A stretch of DNA of 64,000 nt from an uncultured cyanobacterium (lineage in GTDB: Bacteria; Cyanobacteriota; Cyanobacteriia; Cyanobacteriales; Nostocaceae): contig OY970166.1 in assembly GCA_963706595.1 (NCBI GenBank), positions 1,696,001 to 1,760,000 on the forward strand, given 5' to 3'. Every line of letters starts with the position of its first letter. Positions within the stretch are counted from its first letter, which is position 1. Below the pieces are notes generated by a model that saw only the letters and a program-made list of their open reading frames with translations, had not been told where the DNA came from and searched no databases. This document shows, piece after piece, positions 208-5,972 of this stretch. A program made the translations under genes and the position numbers.

Positions 208-3200
208 TTAAGATTCCCATGTAATTGTATAAGAATCTAACGAACCTTTACCCTTACCTTGTCGCCAACAATTATCTGCTTCCCATGCGCCGTTTTCTGT
301 CTTGCGTTTGCGGCTGCGGACGGTGAGGGTGTTATTTTCCAACTTCATTAGGTGATATTGCCAAGGTTCGGCGGTAGTGAGTTCGTGGGTGGGTGCGCCG
401 AATGTTCCCGCGCAGATGCGGAATAGTCCTCGTTCTGCGTCGTATTCATTAAAGCCTTTTTGGGCTTGGTGGACGTGTCCGTGGAGGAAGAAGCGGAAAC
501 CTGCGACGGCTAACTGTTCCATGAAACTTTGGTCTTTGATGCGGTCATCCCAGGCGCTATCTAGGGGATGATGCCATACTGCTATTTTGATGCAGTTTGT
601 ATATTCTTGCTGGCGGCGAATTTTTGTGAGGGCGTTGCTGAGTGTATTCATATTAATGCTGGCACGGGATTTGTAATGATGATCCAATTGCCAAGCGGAG
701 TTTAACCCTAGAATGAGCAGGTTTTGGTCGGGGAAATGGTCGAGGGTGTATTGCTGGTCATAGTCTAGAGGATAGGGTTGGTTTTTGATAGTTTGGTAGA
801 AGTTGCTGAAGTGTTCAAAGCGTTGATTGTATTTTTCTTCATCTCGCACACGAATGACACTGGCACTTTCTTCTATATATTCACCTTGCTTCAGTTCTCC
901 CTCATAGTCGTCACGGTCAATTAATTGGTAAGCTTTTTTTGCTAGTGACCAATTGAGGTCATGATTACCGGGAACGATGATAATTTGCTCAGGTTGGAGG
1001 GCGAAATCTTGGCGGAGTTCATCAAAAAATTGTTTGGCTGCTTCGTATTCTGCGGGGGTTGATTTGTTGGCGATGTCGCCGGAGAGAATGAGGGCATCAA
1101 GTTGAGGAATTTCGAGTTCATTTCGCAAGTCGGTTGCTAGTTGGTTTGACCAAAGTTTAGCTTGGTCAGGTGTGCCAAAGTGCAGGTCTGAGAGGTGGAG
1201 AATGTGCATTATGGAAGTTTTAATAAGCTGGGGGTTTGGTTTAGTAATTGGTTGAGCAAGAGAGTTGTAGTATTTACAGTTTTCTTGTATCGCTTCAAGT
1301 GCTTGTAGTACATCACTCGCATTATCTATATTATTTTCATCTTCGAGCAATTGAATTAACCCAGGAATCGCTGCCTCTGATTTGATTTCTCCCAGGGCTG
1401 ATGCCGCCCTCCTACGCACATCGGAGTTTTCATCTTCGAGCCATTTAATTAACCCAGGAATCGCTGCCTCTGATTTGATTTTTCCCAGGGCTGATGCCGC
1501 AAAATAACGCACAGATAATTCTTCATCTTCGAGCAATTGAATTAACCCAGGAATCGCTGCCTCTGATTTGATTTCTCCCAGGGCTGATGCCGCACTAAAA
1601 CGCACAGATAATTCTTCATCTTCGAGCAATTGAATTAACCCAGGAATCGCTGCCTCTGATTTGATTTTTCCCAGGGCTGATGCCGCACTAAAACGCACAT
1701 CGGAGTTTTCATCTTCAAGCAATTGAATTAACCCAGGAATCGCTGCCTCTGATTTGATTCCTCCCAGGGCTGATGCCGCACTAAAACGCACAGATAAGTC
1801 TTCATGTTCGAGCAATTGAATTAACCCAGGAATCGCTGCCTCTGATTTGATTTTTCCCAGGGCTGATGCCGCACTAGAACGCACATCGGAGTTTTCATGT
1901 TCGAGCAATTGAATTAACCCAGGAATCGCTGCCTCTGATTTGATGTCTCCCAGGGCTGATGCCGCACTAGAACGCACAGAGGAGTTTTCATCTTCGAGCA
2001 ATTGAATTAACCCAGGAATCGCTGCCTCTGATTTGATGTCTCCCAGGGCTGATGCCGCACTAGAACGCACAGAGGAGTTTTCATCTTCGAGCAATTGAAT
2101 TAACTCAGGAATCGCTGCCTCTGATTTGATGTCTCCCAGGGCTGATGCCGCCCTAGAACGCACAGGGGAGTTTTCATCTTCGAGGAATTGAATTAACCCA
2201 GGAATCGCTGCCTCTGATTTGATTTTTCCCAGGGCTGATGCCGCATAATAACGCACATCGGAGTTTTCATGTTCGAGCAATTGAATTAACCCAGGAATCG
2301 CTGCCTCTGATTTGATTTCTCCCAGGGCTAATGCCGCCCTAAAACGCACATCGGAGTTTTCATCTTCAAGCAATTGAATTAACCCAGGAATCGCTGCCTC
2401 TGATTTGATTCCTCCCAGGGCTGATGCCGCACTAGAACGCACATCGGAGTTTTCATCTTCAAGCAATTGAATTAACCCAGGAATCGCTGCCTCTGATTTG
2501 ATGTCTCTCAGGGCTGATGCCGCATAATAATGCACAGAGGAGTTTTCATGTTCGAGCAATTGAATTAACCCAGGAATCGCTGCCTCTGATTTGATGTCTC
2601 CCAGGGCTGATGCCGCCCTCATACGCACATCGGAGTTTTCATCTTCAAGCAATTGAATTAACCCAGGAACCGCTGCCTCTAATTTGATGTCTCCCAGGGC
2701 TGATGCCGCCCTCATACGCACATCGGAGTTTTCATCTTCAAGCAATTGAATTAACCCAGGAATCGCTGCCTCTGATTTGATTTTTACCAGGGCATCTGCC
2801 GCACTCCTACGCACATCGGAGACTTGATGTTCGAGTAATTTAATTAACCCAGGAATCGCTTTGTTAGATTTTGTTAAACCTAAAAGCGTAATTTTAAATA
2901 ATAGAGGAATTTCTAACCCAGCAACTAAATCAACTGTTTGCTGTTGGAATTCTGGCTTTACAGCACCTGCTAACCTTGCGCCTAACTGCCAATCTACCTC
3001 TAAGGCTAAGTTCACCACTTGCACCGCCTGCGCCCCATCATCCACCAATTCCAGCATCAATTTCAGGGGTTCAGTCCATTTTAAATAATTTAAATACTCT
3101 CGCTGGAGACGTTTATCACCGAGGTTTGGTAATTGCTTGAGCAAACATTCGGCGGTGTAATAGTCCTGAATTAGTTGGTGGCGAAATTCAATTTGGTCAT

Positions 3201-4347
3201 TTGCCCCAACTTGAATTAAGTGATGGTTGAGTAAGTCTTGCAGCCAGTTTAAAGCTCTGTCACGGGGTCTATCAAATTTCTCAGATTGCAAAAACTGGGT
3301 TAAAACTTCCTCGGCTTTTGACCTGGATATGGCAACATTTAATTCTGTCAGCTTATCCCCTGTGGTCATGTAGAATGCCAGATGTTCTAATAATCGAGTC
3401 CACCACCGCCGAGACTCATCTGTAACTGGGATATCTTGGCGATATTGACGCTCATAGGTTTGGGTAAACTGGCGAAAAACTAAACCCAAGTTCGGCGGGA
3501 TGTCTCCTGTGGCTTGAAACAATGAACACAGCATCAACAGTAGCAACGGCGTTTCTCCAAACTCCCGCAACCTGTCGCCTAAGTTCTGCAACATCTGCTC
3601 ACCCTGTTCTGGCAAATAGGCGCGGACAAACTGCTGCATCTGTTCTGCTGTCAGGGGTTGCATTTCCAGCTTCTTGGTAATACCCAAATCGCCCCCCACG
3701 CCTAAATCCCGCGTGGTGAATATCATCGGCGTGGTTTTTTCGTAGTCTTGCCGGAATTTATATAAATTTTGTCGGGCTTTTTCTGAGGGTAATTCGTTGA
3801 TACCATCTACCAACAGGAGGAATTGCCCGTCAAATAACAGTTTTTCTATGGTTGTAGTCTCCAACAGTAGGCGATGGCGCATTAAGAAATCCCGAATTAA
3901 ATCTAGGACTGAGGTTTGGTAATAGCGCAACTCTACTAGCACGGGGATTTGACCTAACCCCCCAACCCCCTTCCCTGCGAGGGAAGGGGGAGAATTAACT
4001 CCCCTCTCCGTTTCGGGGAGGGGTTGGGGGAGGGGTTTCTCCGCTTCCTCTAACAACAACCGCACCAACGCCGTTGATTTCCCCGAACCTGGCCGCCCTA
4101 CCAGTAAGACGTGTTCTTGAGCATATTTCCGCAACCCTGCCAATACATCTAAACGCTCAGTTTTCTCCTGGGTTTCGCTCCGTTCCTCTTTGGTGGGCAA
4201 TACCGTCTCCACCATAAAATTTAGCATTAGGGGCGATCGCTTATGCTCAACTCGCTGCTGTCCCACTACATCCGTCAGCGTGTAAGCATTCCACCATTGG
4301 GCATAATCATTGCTGAGTGATTCGAGATAGTCATTCCAGATGCTCAT
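208..4347 (-). CDS. NACHT NTPase + HEAT (PBS-lyase-type) repeat array + C-terminal calcineurin-like metallophosphoesterase (NLR-like)
   Basis: Walker A GRPGSGKST, Walker B LLLVDGINE, IFTTR, TPLLL, FRHQLIQDY; 16 repeats of 31 aa; LSDLHFG, SGDIAN, VPGNHD, WHHP, LHGHVH motifs. Confidence 0.9.
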   Translation of the reverse strand: MSIWNDYLESLSNDYAQWWNAYTLTDVVGQQRVEHKRSPLMLNFMVETVLPTKEERSETQEKTERLDVLAGLRKYAQEHVLLVGRPGSGKSTALVRLLLEEAEKPLPQPLPETERGVNSPPSLAGKGVGGLGQIPVLVELRYYQTSVLDLIRDFLMRHRLLLETTTIEKLLFDGQFLLLVDGINELPSEKARQNLYKFRQDYEKTTPMIFTTRDLGVGGDLGITKKLEMQPLTAEQMQQFVRAYLPEQGEQMLQNLGDRLREFGETPLLLLMLCSLFQATGDIPPNLGLVFRQFTQTYERQYRQDIPVTDESRRWWTRLLEHLAFYMTTGDKLTELNVAISRSKAEEVLTQFLQSEKFDRPRDRALNWLQDLLNHHLIQVGANDQIEFRHQLIQDYYTAECLLKQLPNLGDKRLQREYLNYLKWTEPLKLMLELVDDGAQAVQVVNLALEVDWQLGARLAGAVKPEFQQQTVDLVAGLEIPLLFKITLLGLTKSNKAIPGLIKLLEHQVSDVRRSAADALVKIKSEAAIPGLIQLLEDENSDVRMRAASALGDIKLEAAVPGLIQLLEDENSDVRMRAASALGDIKSEAAIPGLIQLLEHENSSVHYYAASALRDIKSEAAIPGLIQLLEDENSDVRSSAASALGGIKSEAAIPGLIQLLEDENSDVRFRAALALGEIKSEAAIPGLIQLLEHENSDVRYYAASALGKIKSEAAIPGLIQFLEDENSPVRSRAASALGDIKSEAAIPELIQLLEDENSSVRSSAASALGDIKSEAAIPGLIQLLEDENSSVRSSAASALGDIKSEAAIPGLIQLLEHENSDVRSSAASALGKIKSEAAIPGLIQLLEHEDLSVRFSAASALGGIKSEAAIPGLIQLLEDENSDVRFSAASALGKIKSEAAIPGLIQLLEDEELSVRFSAASALGEIKSEAAIPGLIQLLEDEELSVRYFAASALGKIKSEAAIPGLIKWLEDENSDVRRRAASALGEIKSEAAIPGLIQLLEDENNIDNASDVLQALEAIQENCKYYNSLAQPITKPNPQLIKTSIMHILHLSDLHFGTPDQAKLWSNQLATDLRNELEIPQLDALILSGDIANKSTPAEYEAAKQFFDELRQDFALQPEQIIIVPGNHDLNWSLAKKAYQLIDRDDYEGELKQGEYIEESASVIRVRDEEKYNQRFEHFSNFYQTIKNQPYPLDYDQQYTLDHFPDQNLLILGLNSAWQLDHHYKSRASINMNTLSNALTKIRRQQEYTNCIKIAVWHHPLDSAWDDRIKDQSFMEQLAVAGFRFFLHGHVHQAQKGFNEYDAERGLFRICAGTFGAPTHELTTAEPWQYHLMKLENNTLTVRSRKRKTENGAWEADNCWRQGKGKGSLDSYTITWES
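1335..2860 (-). repeat. Intragenic 93-bp tandem repeat array (16 HEAT units)
   Basis: Recurrent aattgaattaacccaggaatcgctgcctctgatttgat with 93-bp period. Confidence 0.95.
3953..4038. repeat. Double-hairpin dispersed repeat inserted in frame in the NACHT gene
   Basis: cctaaccccccaacccccttccc..gggaaggggg..cccctctcc..ggggagggg; closely related to the intergenic copy at ~4587-4674. Confidence 0.85.
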
Positions 4348-4549: not shown

Positions 4550-4695
4550 CTGACTTTTCACGTCATGTGGAAAAGCTAACGCGAAACCTAACCCCCCAAC
4601 CCCCTTCCCTACCAGGGAATGGGGAGAATTCAAAGCCTCTCTCCTTGCAGGAGAGAGGTTTGGAGAGAGGTTTTCTAGATACCGTGAAAAGTTAG
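4550..4695. mobile_element. MITE with ~25-bp imperfect TIRs and 10-bp target-site duplication
   Basis: TIRs ctgacttttcacg../..cgtgaaaagttag; gggatctttt at both 4540-4549 and 4696-4705. Confidence 0.85.
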
Positions 4696-4761
4696 GGGAT
4701 CTTTTTTGTTCTCGAACTACGAATTATGCTAATTTCATCTCAGTGAACTTTGCTATCACCA

Positions 4762-5262
4762 ATGTCTAACCTATTACCAACTGAATCCCAGCCTAAATCT
4801 CTCGATGATTTTGAATTAGACTTGCTCAAACAGGAATATTTTTTTCTGCAAAATACGATTGAAGACTATAACAAGCAGATTTGGGTGATAAAAGCCCTGG
4901 GAATTACTGGGACTGGGGGAGTCTTAGCATTGATGTTACAGCAAAAACCCATCGCCAGTGCGATCGCCTTAATAGGTTGCTCTATTCCCTTATTTTTCTG
5001 GATTCTCGAAAGTCAATGGAAACACTTTCAGCGCGGTTTCTATCCCCGTGTTGCCGAAATTGAGTATATTCTCGCCAATACATACAACTTGAAAAGCCCT
5101 GGTATCTATGGCAGTTGGTCGAAAACCCACAAGCGTCAGCACATTTCTAAACGTCAAGGCTACCTCTGGGATGGTCTGCTCAATCGTAGTGTTTTCATGA
5201 GCTACATCCTAGAGATTATCTTTCTGTTGATCATAGCGGCGATCGCACCTAATATTTTGTAA
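4762..5262 (+). CDS. Small membrane protein with about 3 TM helices, function unknown
   Basis: ORF track; hydrophobic segments ALGITGTGGVLALML, IALIGCSIPLFFWIL, VFMSYILEIIFLLIIAAIA; ATG 4762 preferred over TTG 4750. Confidence 0.75.
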   Translation: MSNLLPTESQPKSLDDFELDLLKQEYFFLQNTIEDYNKQIWVIKALGITGTGGVLALMLQQKPIASAIALIGCSIPLFFWILESQWKHFQRGFYPRVAEIEYILANTYNLKSPGIYGSWSKTHKRQHISKRQGYLWDGLLNRSVFMSYILEIIFLLIIAAIAPNIL

Positions 5263-5537
5263 TAATTACTCTCGGTGCGCCCATCTAAACAAATGCGTCC
5301 GGTTGTGGAGATAGGGAACACATCCAAAGCCTTTACCAGTTTCTCACCTCCGCGAGACACAAAGCGCGATCGCTCTTTAATCTTAATTTGAGCCGCAACA
5401 TCAACTTCCGTCCCAGCCTTATCCACCACCTGCTGATTAACAGTCACCTCTCCCGCTTGAATTAAGCGCTGTGCTAAAGCGCGAGAAGGACATAAATTTA
5501 AATCTACTAATAATGTATCGAGTCGCTGCTTCACCAA
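5202..5537 (-). pseudogene. tlyA: Truncated tlyA 5' fragment (S4 domain, ends at ..GRICLDG)
   Basis: KQRLDTLLV..SRALAQRLIQAGEV..FVSRGGEKL..ICLDG, then sequence antisense to the neighbouring gene instead of the expected GxSTGGFTD continuation; homology ends ~5281. Confidence 0.85.
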
Positions 5538-5972
5538 TTAACTTGACTCTCCTGGTAATATCAAATCTAAAGCAAAATGAATAATTTCTTCCCGATTTAC
5601 CAACTTCTCTAATTCTTCTGGCTGATAACGACCTTCTTCCACTTCCAAAGAAGCCTGATCAATAGCATTTAAATAAGCTTCTTCTAAAGTTTCCCATAAT
5701 TCCGAGCGTGTGAGGTAATAACCTCCAGCTTTACGGCGCTTATTTTCTCGCTGAATTTCCCGAACAGAATTGCGAATAGACACTTCCCAAGAGCGAGTGC
5801 TGCGATGTTCCGCTTTTTGTTTAATTAAATGTAATAAAAGAATCACCGCGTAACTACGAATCGTTTTAATAATGTCATTTCGGCTCATTTCTGCCAATTC
5901 TTCCACGATAACCAACGCCCCTGTAACATCGCCTTTAATGAGTAAGTCTTTCAGAGTTAGTAATTCTTCCAT
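5538..5972 (-). CDS. DUF29 family protein
   Basis: EELAEMSR..LLLHLIK..RSWEVSIRNS pattern. Confidence 0.8.
   Translation of the reverse strand: MEELLTLKDLLIKGDVTGALVIVEELAEMSRNDIIKTIRSYAVILLLHLIKQKAEHRSTRSWEVSIRNSVREIQRENKRRKAGGYYLTRSELWETLEEAYLNAIDQASLEVEEGRYQPEELEKLVNREEIIHFALDLILPGESS

Follow-up and report, generated by a model that had tools for sequence, protein, structure and literature searches.

The stretch of DNA analysed here (hereafter the window) comprises 64,000 nucleotides of contig OY970166.1 (positions 1,696,001 to 1,760,000; assembly GCA_963706595.1) from an uncultured cyanobacterium of the Nostocaceae. Near its left end, a single open reading frame (ORF) on the minus strand (208..4347) encodes a protein of 1379 aa in which a NACHT ATPase is followed by an array of 16 HEAT units, a cap, a linker and a C-terminal metallophosphoesterase. 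One ORF thus contains all three parts of the tripartite build of NOD-like receptors (NLRs), with the nucleotide-oligomerisation domain (NOD) first, the sensor second and the effector last, instead of the order effector-NOD-sensor. When the whole protein is scanned with Pfam, the families HEAT_2, HEAT, HEAT_PBS, Metallophos and NACHT are found, HEAT_PBS matching the array in 16 stretches (E 5e-100). Judged from its sequence, the gene product is probably an NLR-like receptor of a filamentous, Nodularia-like cyanobacterium, belonging to the NACHT type of the signal transduction ATPases with numerous domains (STAND).

The N-terminal module (2860..4347, minus strand; aa 1-496) contains a segment preceding the P-loop, the NACHT NTPase and a helical arm. 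Scanned alone with Pfam, it matches the NACHT family PF05729 with 31.7 bits (cut-off 26.7). Both the Walker A (4075-4098, aa 84-91) and the Walker B (3793-3819, aa 177-185) motifs are intact on the minus strand, in agreement with an earlier reading of the DNA letters (the original prediction), according to which the repeats are coupled to a NACHT switch. The N-terminus carries no effector; its first 60 aa form a conserved lead-in to the P-loop that is common to all orthologues. Over the NACHT part, amino acid identity to the same-genus orthologues of genomes G010, G002 and G009 is 83-87%. Between Walker A and the next strand lies an in-frame copy of a dispersed short repeat resembling a miniature inverted-repeat transposable element (3952..4035, minus strand; aa 105-132), identified by blastn (32 hits in the own genome) and translated as a proline- and glycine-rich loop. 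At this position, relatives carry other sequence and their contigs break. Since orthologues have different inserts at the same spot, the site corresponds to a tolerated insertion hotspot.

The array itself (1372..2859, minus strand; aa 497-992) consists of 16 highly internally conserved 31-aa units of the HEAT (alphaRep-like) type, as delimited with Tandem Repeats Finder, a unit alignment and an AlphaFold model. Tandem Repeats Finder reports one array at 1334-2860, with a period of 93, 16.4 copies, 91% matches, no indel and a score of 2399. In the register used here, which begins with A-I-P-G, unit 12 (aa 869-899) reads AIPGLIQLLEDENSDVRFSAASALGKIKSEA. All 16 units are distinct, with a protein identity of 81.8% pairwise and 87.7% to the consensus, so that the array belongs with the repeats of high internal conservation (HIC), whose units are about 80% or more identical. 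At the DNA level, mean pairwise identity is 90.0% and 31 of the 93 nucleotide columns vary. The variation is concentrated at unit positions 11, 13-15, 18, 19 and 26, with lesser variation at 22 and 25: identity reaches 96.6% outside the seven hypervariable codons (11, 13, 14, 15, 18, 19 and 26) and falls to 67.4% inside them.

This picture matches the description given in the original prediction. The near-identical 31-aa units form a tandem repeat within the single 1379-aa minus-strand ORF, and the pairs of residues following V-R/H are exactly those listed there (RS, MR, MR, YY, SS, FR, YY, SR, SS, SS, SS, FS, FS, FS, YF, RR). The small codon pools (AGG/ATG/TAT/TCT/TTT at position 18; AGT/AGG/TAT/TTT at position 19) and the other variant blocks (D/H at 11; NSD/NSS/ELS at 13-15; D/K/E/G at 26) were recovered as well, the block 13-15 holding DLS, NSP and VSD in addition. 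Silent sites are nearly invariant, as had been claimed: synonymous variants occur at only two of the 31 codon positions, namely position 8 (TTA once) and position 9 (CTC in 11 units, CTT in five). Downstream of the last unit, a seventeenth half-unit and a C-terminal capping helix precede a linker modelled with low confidence (1264..1371, minus strand). In the AlphaFold model, helices are placed at model residues 554-563 and 565-584, after which the predicted local distance difference test score (pLDDT) drops below 50. The cap motif is kept in orthologues regardless of their C-terminal domain.

An AlphaFold model of aa 440-1046, computed from the single sequence, has a mean pLDDT of 85.5, with values mostly above 90 in the array. 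In each modelled unit, helix A spans approximately positions -1 to 8, a loop positions 9-13 and helix B positions 14-27. According to this model, positions 15, 18/19, 22 and 25/26 would follow the i, i+3/4 spacing of one helical face, positions 11 and 13 being located in the preceding loop. Foldseek aligns the array model with alphaRep chains (TM score 0.79 on the target, 46% identity) and also with the PP2A A subunit. The best sequence matches in the PDB are artificial alphaRep proteins (E down to 3e-83; PDB 4zv6, 6bzx, 4xl5). With its 31-residue two-helix unit and these matches in sequence and fold, the array can be described as an alphaRep-type HEAT (HEAT_PBS) solenoid.

This relationship is informative with respect to the variable positions. 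In the alignment, alphaRep chains vary around V-R (two residues on each side), after A-A and after L-G, and these residues align to unit positions 14, 15, 18, 19, 22 and 26. In the library's own numbering, the variable positions are 18, 19, 22, 23, 26 and 30, and alphaRep binders contact their targets through concave faces bearing the variable residues, which account for 13 of the 17 contacts in one complex described (Guellouz et al., 2013; PMC3754942). Of the six library positions, four belong to the six most variable ones of the natural array (hypergeometric P = 0.0063), and the other two, 14 and 22, vary in it too. The idea of a ligand-recognition surface on the second helix is therefore supported by the model, where variation is predicted at the start and along one face of helix B and all six alphaRep positions vary, the face being assigned by homology and helical periodicity.

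The C-terminal metallophosphoesterase module (223..1209, minus strand; aa 1047-1375) was delimited with Pfam, NCBIfam and a structural model. Metallophos PF00149 matches aa 1047-1294 with 48.9 bits. All five motifs of calcineurin-like metallophosphoesterases are present on the minus strand (DxH, 1177-1191; GD, 1066-1083; GNHD, 958-969; HH, 565-579; GHxH, 469-483), and an alignment of 26 sequences shows little or no change in the catalytic residues. An AlphaFold model of the effector (pLDDT 86.9) is closest in fold to a modelled B. subtilis YydB chain, then to the phosphodiesterases GpdQ, Rv0805 and Lmo2642, Mre11/SbcD being further away. The closest curated models are NCBIfam anti-phage phosphoesterases (E 6e-28 and 5e-26), both matched below cut-off (DS9_1, 97.9 bits vs 420; DS8, 90.7 bits vs 790), so that the module is related to these families without being a member. 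EruA is the only named NACHT defence model matched (E 1.7e-4, far under its cut-off). Calcineurin-type domains have been predicted to act as nucleotide phosphodiesterases in conflict systems (Kaur et al.; PMC7159879).

The module, of about 330 aa, has 568 representatives at E <= 1e-30, located at either end of proteins of 340-2356 aa. Its domain company was assessed in 42 of 150 listed representatives, with the five best families for each. NACHT, NB-ARC, nSTAND or AAA accompany it in 12 of the 42, TIR in five, effector-associated domains (EAD) in two, and SIR2, caspase, CHAT and Macro in one each. By its sequence company, the phosphoesterase is a promiscuous STAND/NLR effector module.

How the array varies can be compared with how its flanks evolve. 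Among the units, 29 variant codons are replacements and two are silent, and silent variants are rarer than neutral site counts predict (binomial P = 0.0099). Taken among paralogous, sequence-exchanging units, pN/pS is 2.78 over all 16 units and 2.97 over the inner 14, edge units excluded. By comparison, dN/dS between species is 0.27-0.80 in the flanking domains (effector, 0.27-0.80; NACHT part, 0.35-0.58). Silent divergence of the flanks (dS 0.08-0.27) also exceeds that within the array (pS 0.04). At the hypervariable codons, alleles differ by several nucleotides and no silent variant is found. Variation is thus not proportional at synonymous sites, and the ratio in the array relative to the flanks speaks for the diversifying selection previously put forward. 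Selection would keep replacement changes at the binding face and remove them elsewhere.

The units are, in addition, mosaics of one another. When the codons are put to a four-gamete test, all four combinations occur in 20 of 36 informative pairs, which requires a minimum of five exchanges within 93 bases; the same is seen for 60 of 78 pairs in the G010 array and four of 15 in the G002 array. Units with the silent CTT at position 9 invariably carry D-NSD to its right, yet they have five different di-residues, which places breakpoints between positions 15 and 18. At position 7, Q is found in 14 of the 16 units and K in the first and the last, K being the residue that G002 shows throughout its 12 units and G010 in 14 of its 19. 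Position 13 is N in the window array vs D in the orthologues. As read from these sequences, such a pattern is that of classical concerted evolution, interior units being homogenised for species-specific changes while edge units are left in the older state. Adjacent units are more alike than in shuffled orders (7.87 vs 9.27 differences, P = 0.02, 20,000 shuffles). Taken together, the mosaic four-gamete blocks, the interior spread of species-specific changes and the differing number of units among orthologues argue for inter-repeat recombination, as anticipated from the letters.

An orthologue of the gene is found in five of ten other genomes of the genus (G001, G002, G006, G009, G010) and is lacking from the other five. 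To the 16 units of the window correspond 19 units in G010 and 12 in G002, the latter in a single-contig genome; outside this set, five units are found in G012 and nine or more in G033. The same unit positions vary in these four arrays, whereas those of G009 and G001 are made of degenerate repeats. The closest relative, G006, is 92% identical over the NACHT part; its whole array reads N (G006:C1:5326800-5333200) and was left out. The repertoires of di-residues differ between species, with S/Y combined with I/R/L in G010 and W/R combined with S in G002, some codons being shared. Over the G002 array, the opposite (plus) strand contains an open frame of 452 codons, which is not a gene but a consequence of the repetition; over the window array, the opposite strand has no frame that reaches 80 aa.

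Beyond the genus, at least 1389 proteins match at E <= 1e-50, in Nodularia, Anabaena, Nostoc, Calothrix, Moorena, Symploca, Microcystis and others. Among the 120 best homologues, 70 contain six or more units, each set being at least 71% identical to its own consensus. Ranked by mean entropy over these 70 arrays, positions 15, 18, 22, 19, 14, 13 and 26 come first, and S, R, Y, I and W predominate at position 18. Precomputed Pfam lists show that some homologues bear a caspase or TIR domain instead of the phosphoesterase. The distant orthologues G036, G020 and G034 keep the NACHT domain, the HEAT array and the cap motif; by eye, their C-terminal ends are caspase-like in G020, of no assigned family in G036 and devoid of such a domain in G034. 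On these sequence comparisons, the effector is swappable. Contigs from an RNA library of one relative cover both flanks of the array, at best a weak hint of transcription.

A second NACHT gene occurs in the own genome (C1:3092327-3096607). Its frame of 1427 aa contains about 16 near-identical HEAT-like units of 33 aa, in which a variable pair (YY, HQ, HK, SV, HR) precedes A-A-S-S-L-G at the equivalent helix position, and its C-terminal domain is different.

Upstream of the NLR gene, a divergently oriented gene (4750..5262, plus strand) encodes a predicted membrane protein of 170 aa that matches no Pfam or NCBIfam family and whose atlas neighbours are unnamed clusters. Over its first 152 aa, this protein is 92-100% identical at all six same-genus NLR loci (G000, the window genome, G001, G002, G006, G009 and G010; the G001 match is in two pieces) and is thus better conserved than the NLR itself. 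It has no match at any locus of the NLR-lacking genomes G003, G004 and G005. The membrane protein may be a partner of the NLR or a mere passenger; nothing was found in support of a SLATT-like partner identity. In the intergenic promoter region, a second copy of the dispersed repeat family (4550..4699, no strand assigned; 47 blastn hits in the own genome) is absent from contigs of three relatives, where 4549 is joined to 4700. Further upstream, a duplicated fragment of about 280 bp from the 5' end of tlyA, recognised by alignment (5280..5560, minus strand), bounds the islet. The full tlyA begins at window position 35 and runs leftward off the window; the second stretch of the duplication lies at 1-58 and likewise extends beyond the left end. 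The one 5' end of tlyA present in G003 can be aligned with either copy. The NLR and the membrane protein form a 5.2-kb islet bracketed by a direct duplication of the tlyA 5' end. G003, which lacks the NLR and is assembled as a single contig, shows the empty site, with one tlyA directly after DUF29; G004 and G005 have three unrelated genes upstream of tlyA, including a CHASE2 cyclase. G002 possesses the membrane protein and the NLR without DUF29 or the tlyA duplication. In view of these empty or otherwise occupied sites, the NLR is an accessory gene at a variable spot upstream of tlyA.

The architecture of the gene, the pattern of variation and its position on the fold, the mosaicism of the units, the differences between orthologues, and the motifs and domain company of the effector are best explained by a HEAT-array NLR with a recombining, diversifying sensor and a phosphoesterase effector, a reading to which we give a probability of about 0.7. 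In this proposal, the sensor arm would be an alphaRep-type HEAT solenoid whose ligand-contacting residues, which alone would vary, lie in the loop before helix B and on one face of this helix. The high DNA identity between units would allow unequal crossing-over and short-tract gene conversion within the gene, and such recombination would change the number of units and re-sort a small pool of variant codons. Binding of a ligand might then free the NACHT domain to bind ATP and oligomerise. Oligomerisation could gather the C-terminal metallophosphoesterases and activate them as phosphodiesterases on nucleic acid or nucleotides, so that the infected or non-self cell would presumably stop growing or die.

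It should, however, be noted that several points weigh against this proposal. The effector is placed behind the sensor, an order unlike that of the characterised bacterial NLRs, which makes the activation route a conjecture. The nearest effector folds are cyclic-nucleotide and glycerophospho-diesterases, and sequence and fold do not separate a nuclease from a nucleotide phosphodiesterase. The PADLOC and NCBIfam defence matches are weak, at the level of domains and below curated cut-offs, and the locus is not a defence island, its neighbours being housekeeping genes (tlyA, an allophycocyanin-like gene and glnA). As a ratio among exchanging paralogous units, pN/pS is not a formal test of selection. 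Several four-gamete pairs involve single-nucleotide alleles (D/H, E/K), so that recurrent mutation could explain part of the mosaicism. Also, no trustworthy comparison of arrays within one species is available: Nodularia spumigena proteins with two or three units are encoded on contigs of 16-104 kb, vs 12 units in a complete genome, and were not used as evidence because they are possibly collapsed assemblies. Finally, short-read contigs of relatives, from four runs, cover the flanks at about 90-97% identity and stop at the array edges.

The most serious alternative retains the same diversified receptor and assigns to it a non-phage ligand; the protein would then serve to recognise kin or non-self, or would mediate programmed cell death between filaments, in the manner of the fungal HET-E and HET-D. 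The names of the nearest homologues indicate a multicellular, filament-forming host, the precedents in fungi are genes of allorecognition, and the gene lies outside any defence island; the same alternative has been raised for bacterial STAND sensors in a study of diversity-generating retroelements (DGRs; PMC10907252). On the other side, the closest curated models of the effector are named anti-phage, albeit matched below cut-off, and the bacterial NACHT and Avs proteins characterised in the literature consulted are anti-phage. Nothing in the data tells the two roles apart; we regard the non-phage role as unlikely, yet deserving serious consideration.

A second alternative would see in the array a neutral by-product of recent slippage or unequal crossing-over, with variation where the structure tolerates it and no adaptive diversification. 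Silent sites indeed indicate that the units are very young, neighbours resemble each other more than expected by chance, and the alphaRep positions were picked because natural repeats tolerate change there (PMC3754942). Relaxed constraint would nevertheless bring dN/dS up to 1, not to the 2.8-3.0 obtained over the whole unit, nor does it account for multi-nucleotide alleles at codons free of silent variants. The recurrence of the same hypervariable positions in 70 of the 120 best homologues, from many genera, further makes this explanation improbable.

Still less probable is an assembly artefact, in which 93-bp units would have been collapsed or mis-joined and their number or order would be wrong. 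Such errors are suggested by the breaks of the relatives' short-read contigs at the array edges, one of these contigs joining 1437 to 2854, across 1416 bases, with 21 foreign letters; this junction says nothing on the window array. As for the source strain, no sequencing run contained more than 0.25 of the sampled words. Against an artefact, the assembly consists of one contig of 5.57 Mb, the 16 units of the array are all distinct and keep the frame without any indel, and comparable arrays exist in other single-contig genomes (G002, 12 units). An error in number or order would, moreover, leave the pattern of variation intact. Programmed variation by a DGR or by silent donor cassettes, for which the cassette-like codon pools and the known diversification of STAND sensors by DGRs in multicellular bacteria (PMC10907252) might plead, is hardly credible and was set aside together with the array as a DGR target, since all 18 blastn matches to a probe of two units in the own genome fall within the array, the five reverse transcriptase genes of the genome are all more than 480 kb away, and the changes in the array show no adenine bias.

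The coincidence of naturally hypervariable positions with those randomised in alphaRep libraries gives a concrete prediction of the residues that set specificity. The family as a whole is a large one, found widely in cyanobacteria that form blooms, and its death effectors are interchangeable. Should strains differ in their arrays, these would mark, and might even determine, the recognition of cyanophages or of kin; they could also serve as a natural source of binder scaffolds. A bolder idea, which we consider speculative and rather unlikely, is that the array forms a natural self-reshuffling binder library, in which the 93-bp units might recombine within the gene so often that orders and numbers of units differ among the cells or filaments of one population. 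If true, a multicellular cyanobacterium would possess, with no need of a reverse transcriptase, a repertoire of NLR specificities prepared in advance, a recombination-based counterpart of DGR-diversified sensors and of fungal HET loci. The spread of such arrays among the best homologues, together with swappable phosphoesterase, caspase and TIR effectors, would then point to a major unstudied arm of cyanobacterial immunity.

To our knowledge, the characterised bNACHT and Avs proteins have N-terminal effectors, with non-repetitive or degenerate sensors for conserved phage proteins. The gene described here differs from them by its hypervariable sensor and its C-terminal effector, although a metallophosphoesterase module is also found at the N-terminus of NACHT and NB-ARC proteins. 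It shares with bNACHT and Avs a STAND NTPase, a repeat sensor and a death effector (proteins named in PMC13581612 and PMC10907252). In the passages found of the former, a 2026 study of prokaryotic STAND sensors, HEAT arrays and the present effector are unmentioned. The DGR-diversified STAND sensors (Dore et al., 2024; PMC10907252) also combine a diversifying sensor with an NLR-like ATPase in a multicellular bacterium. In their case, as described there, adenines are mutagenised by a reverse transcriptase in a C-type lectin fold, whereas here the sensor is a repeat solenoid, with neither a nearby reverse transcriptase nor an adenine bias. With alphaRep binders, the array has in common the 31-residue unit and natural variability at the positions randomised in the library. 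These binders are designed, have 1-7 internal units and lack an NTPase and an effector, and the natural array has further variable positions, two in the loop (11 and 13) and one at 25.

The closest parallels are offered by the HIC NLRs. In bacteria, WD and TPR arrays of 80-90% identity were reported in cyanobacterial and actinobacterial NLRs, for which the same regime was suggested (Dyrka et al., 10.1101/2020.01.06.895854), and in a 2026 survey, proteins with HIC repeats were enriched for ATPase domains in all domains of life, HEAT repeats being explicitly left out (Ament-Velasquez et al.; PMC13449251). The phylum (Cyanobacteria), the phenomenon and the proposed rapid diversification are the same as here. 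The repeats covered in these reports are WD40, TPR, ANK and LRR, whereas the present array is made of HEAT units; our literature searches, which had supplements outside their scope, returned no paper on bacterial HIC HEAT arrays.

Shuffling-repeat NLRs have been well studied in fungi, in the context of allorecognition, and in bacteria were noted only in WD40/TPR surveys. The fungal HIC NLRs, with WD40, ANK or TPR arrays and one HEAT array, are polymorphic in repeat number, with positive selection acting on their concave face (Dyrka et al., 2014; PMC4986451). HET-E, HET-D, the HNWD family and the Podospora NACHT/HEAT gene Pa_6_7270 resemble the present gene in associating a NACHT domain with near-identical, superstructure-forming repeats, and likewise in having few variable positions on the binding face, an excess of replacements, a number of repeats that varies among alleles or orthologues and a proposed origin by shuffling and concerted evolution (PMC4986451, PMC13449251). 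Some differences emerge: the fungal HEAT unit has 33 aa vs 31 aa for the HEAT_PBS/alphaRep unit of this bacterial gene; unlike in the fungal proteins, the effector here is C-terminal, behind the sensor; and polymorphism between strains is known from Podospora, whereas for the present array the differences documented are those between orthologues of different species. The idea of repeat shuffling is already published for HIC-repeat NLRs, and this gene is a bacterial HEAT example of that kind.

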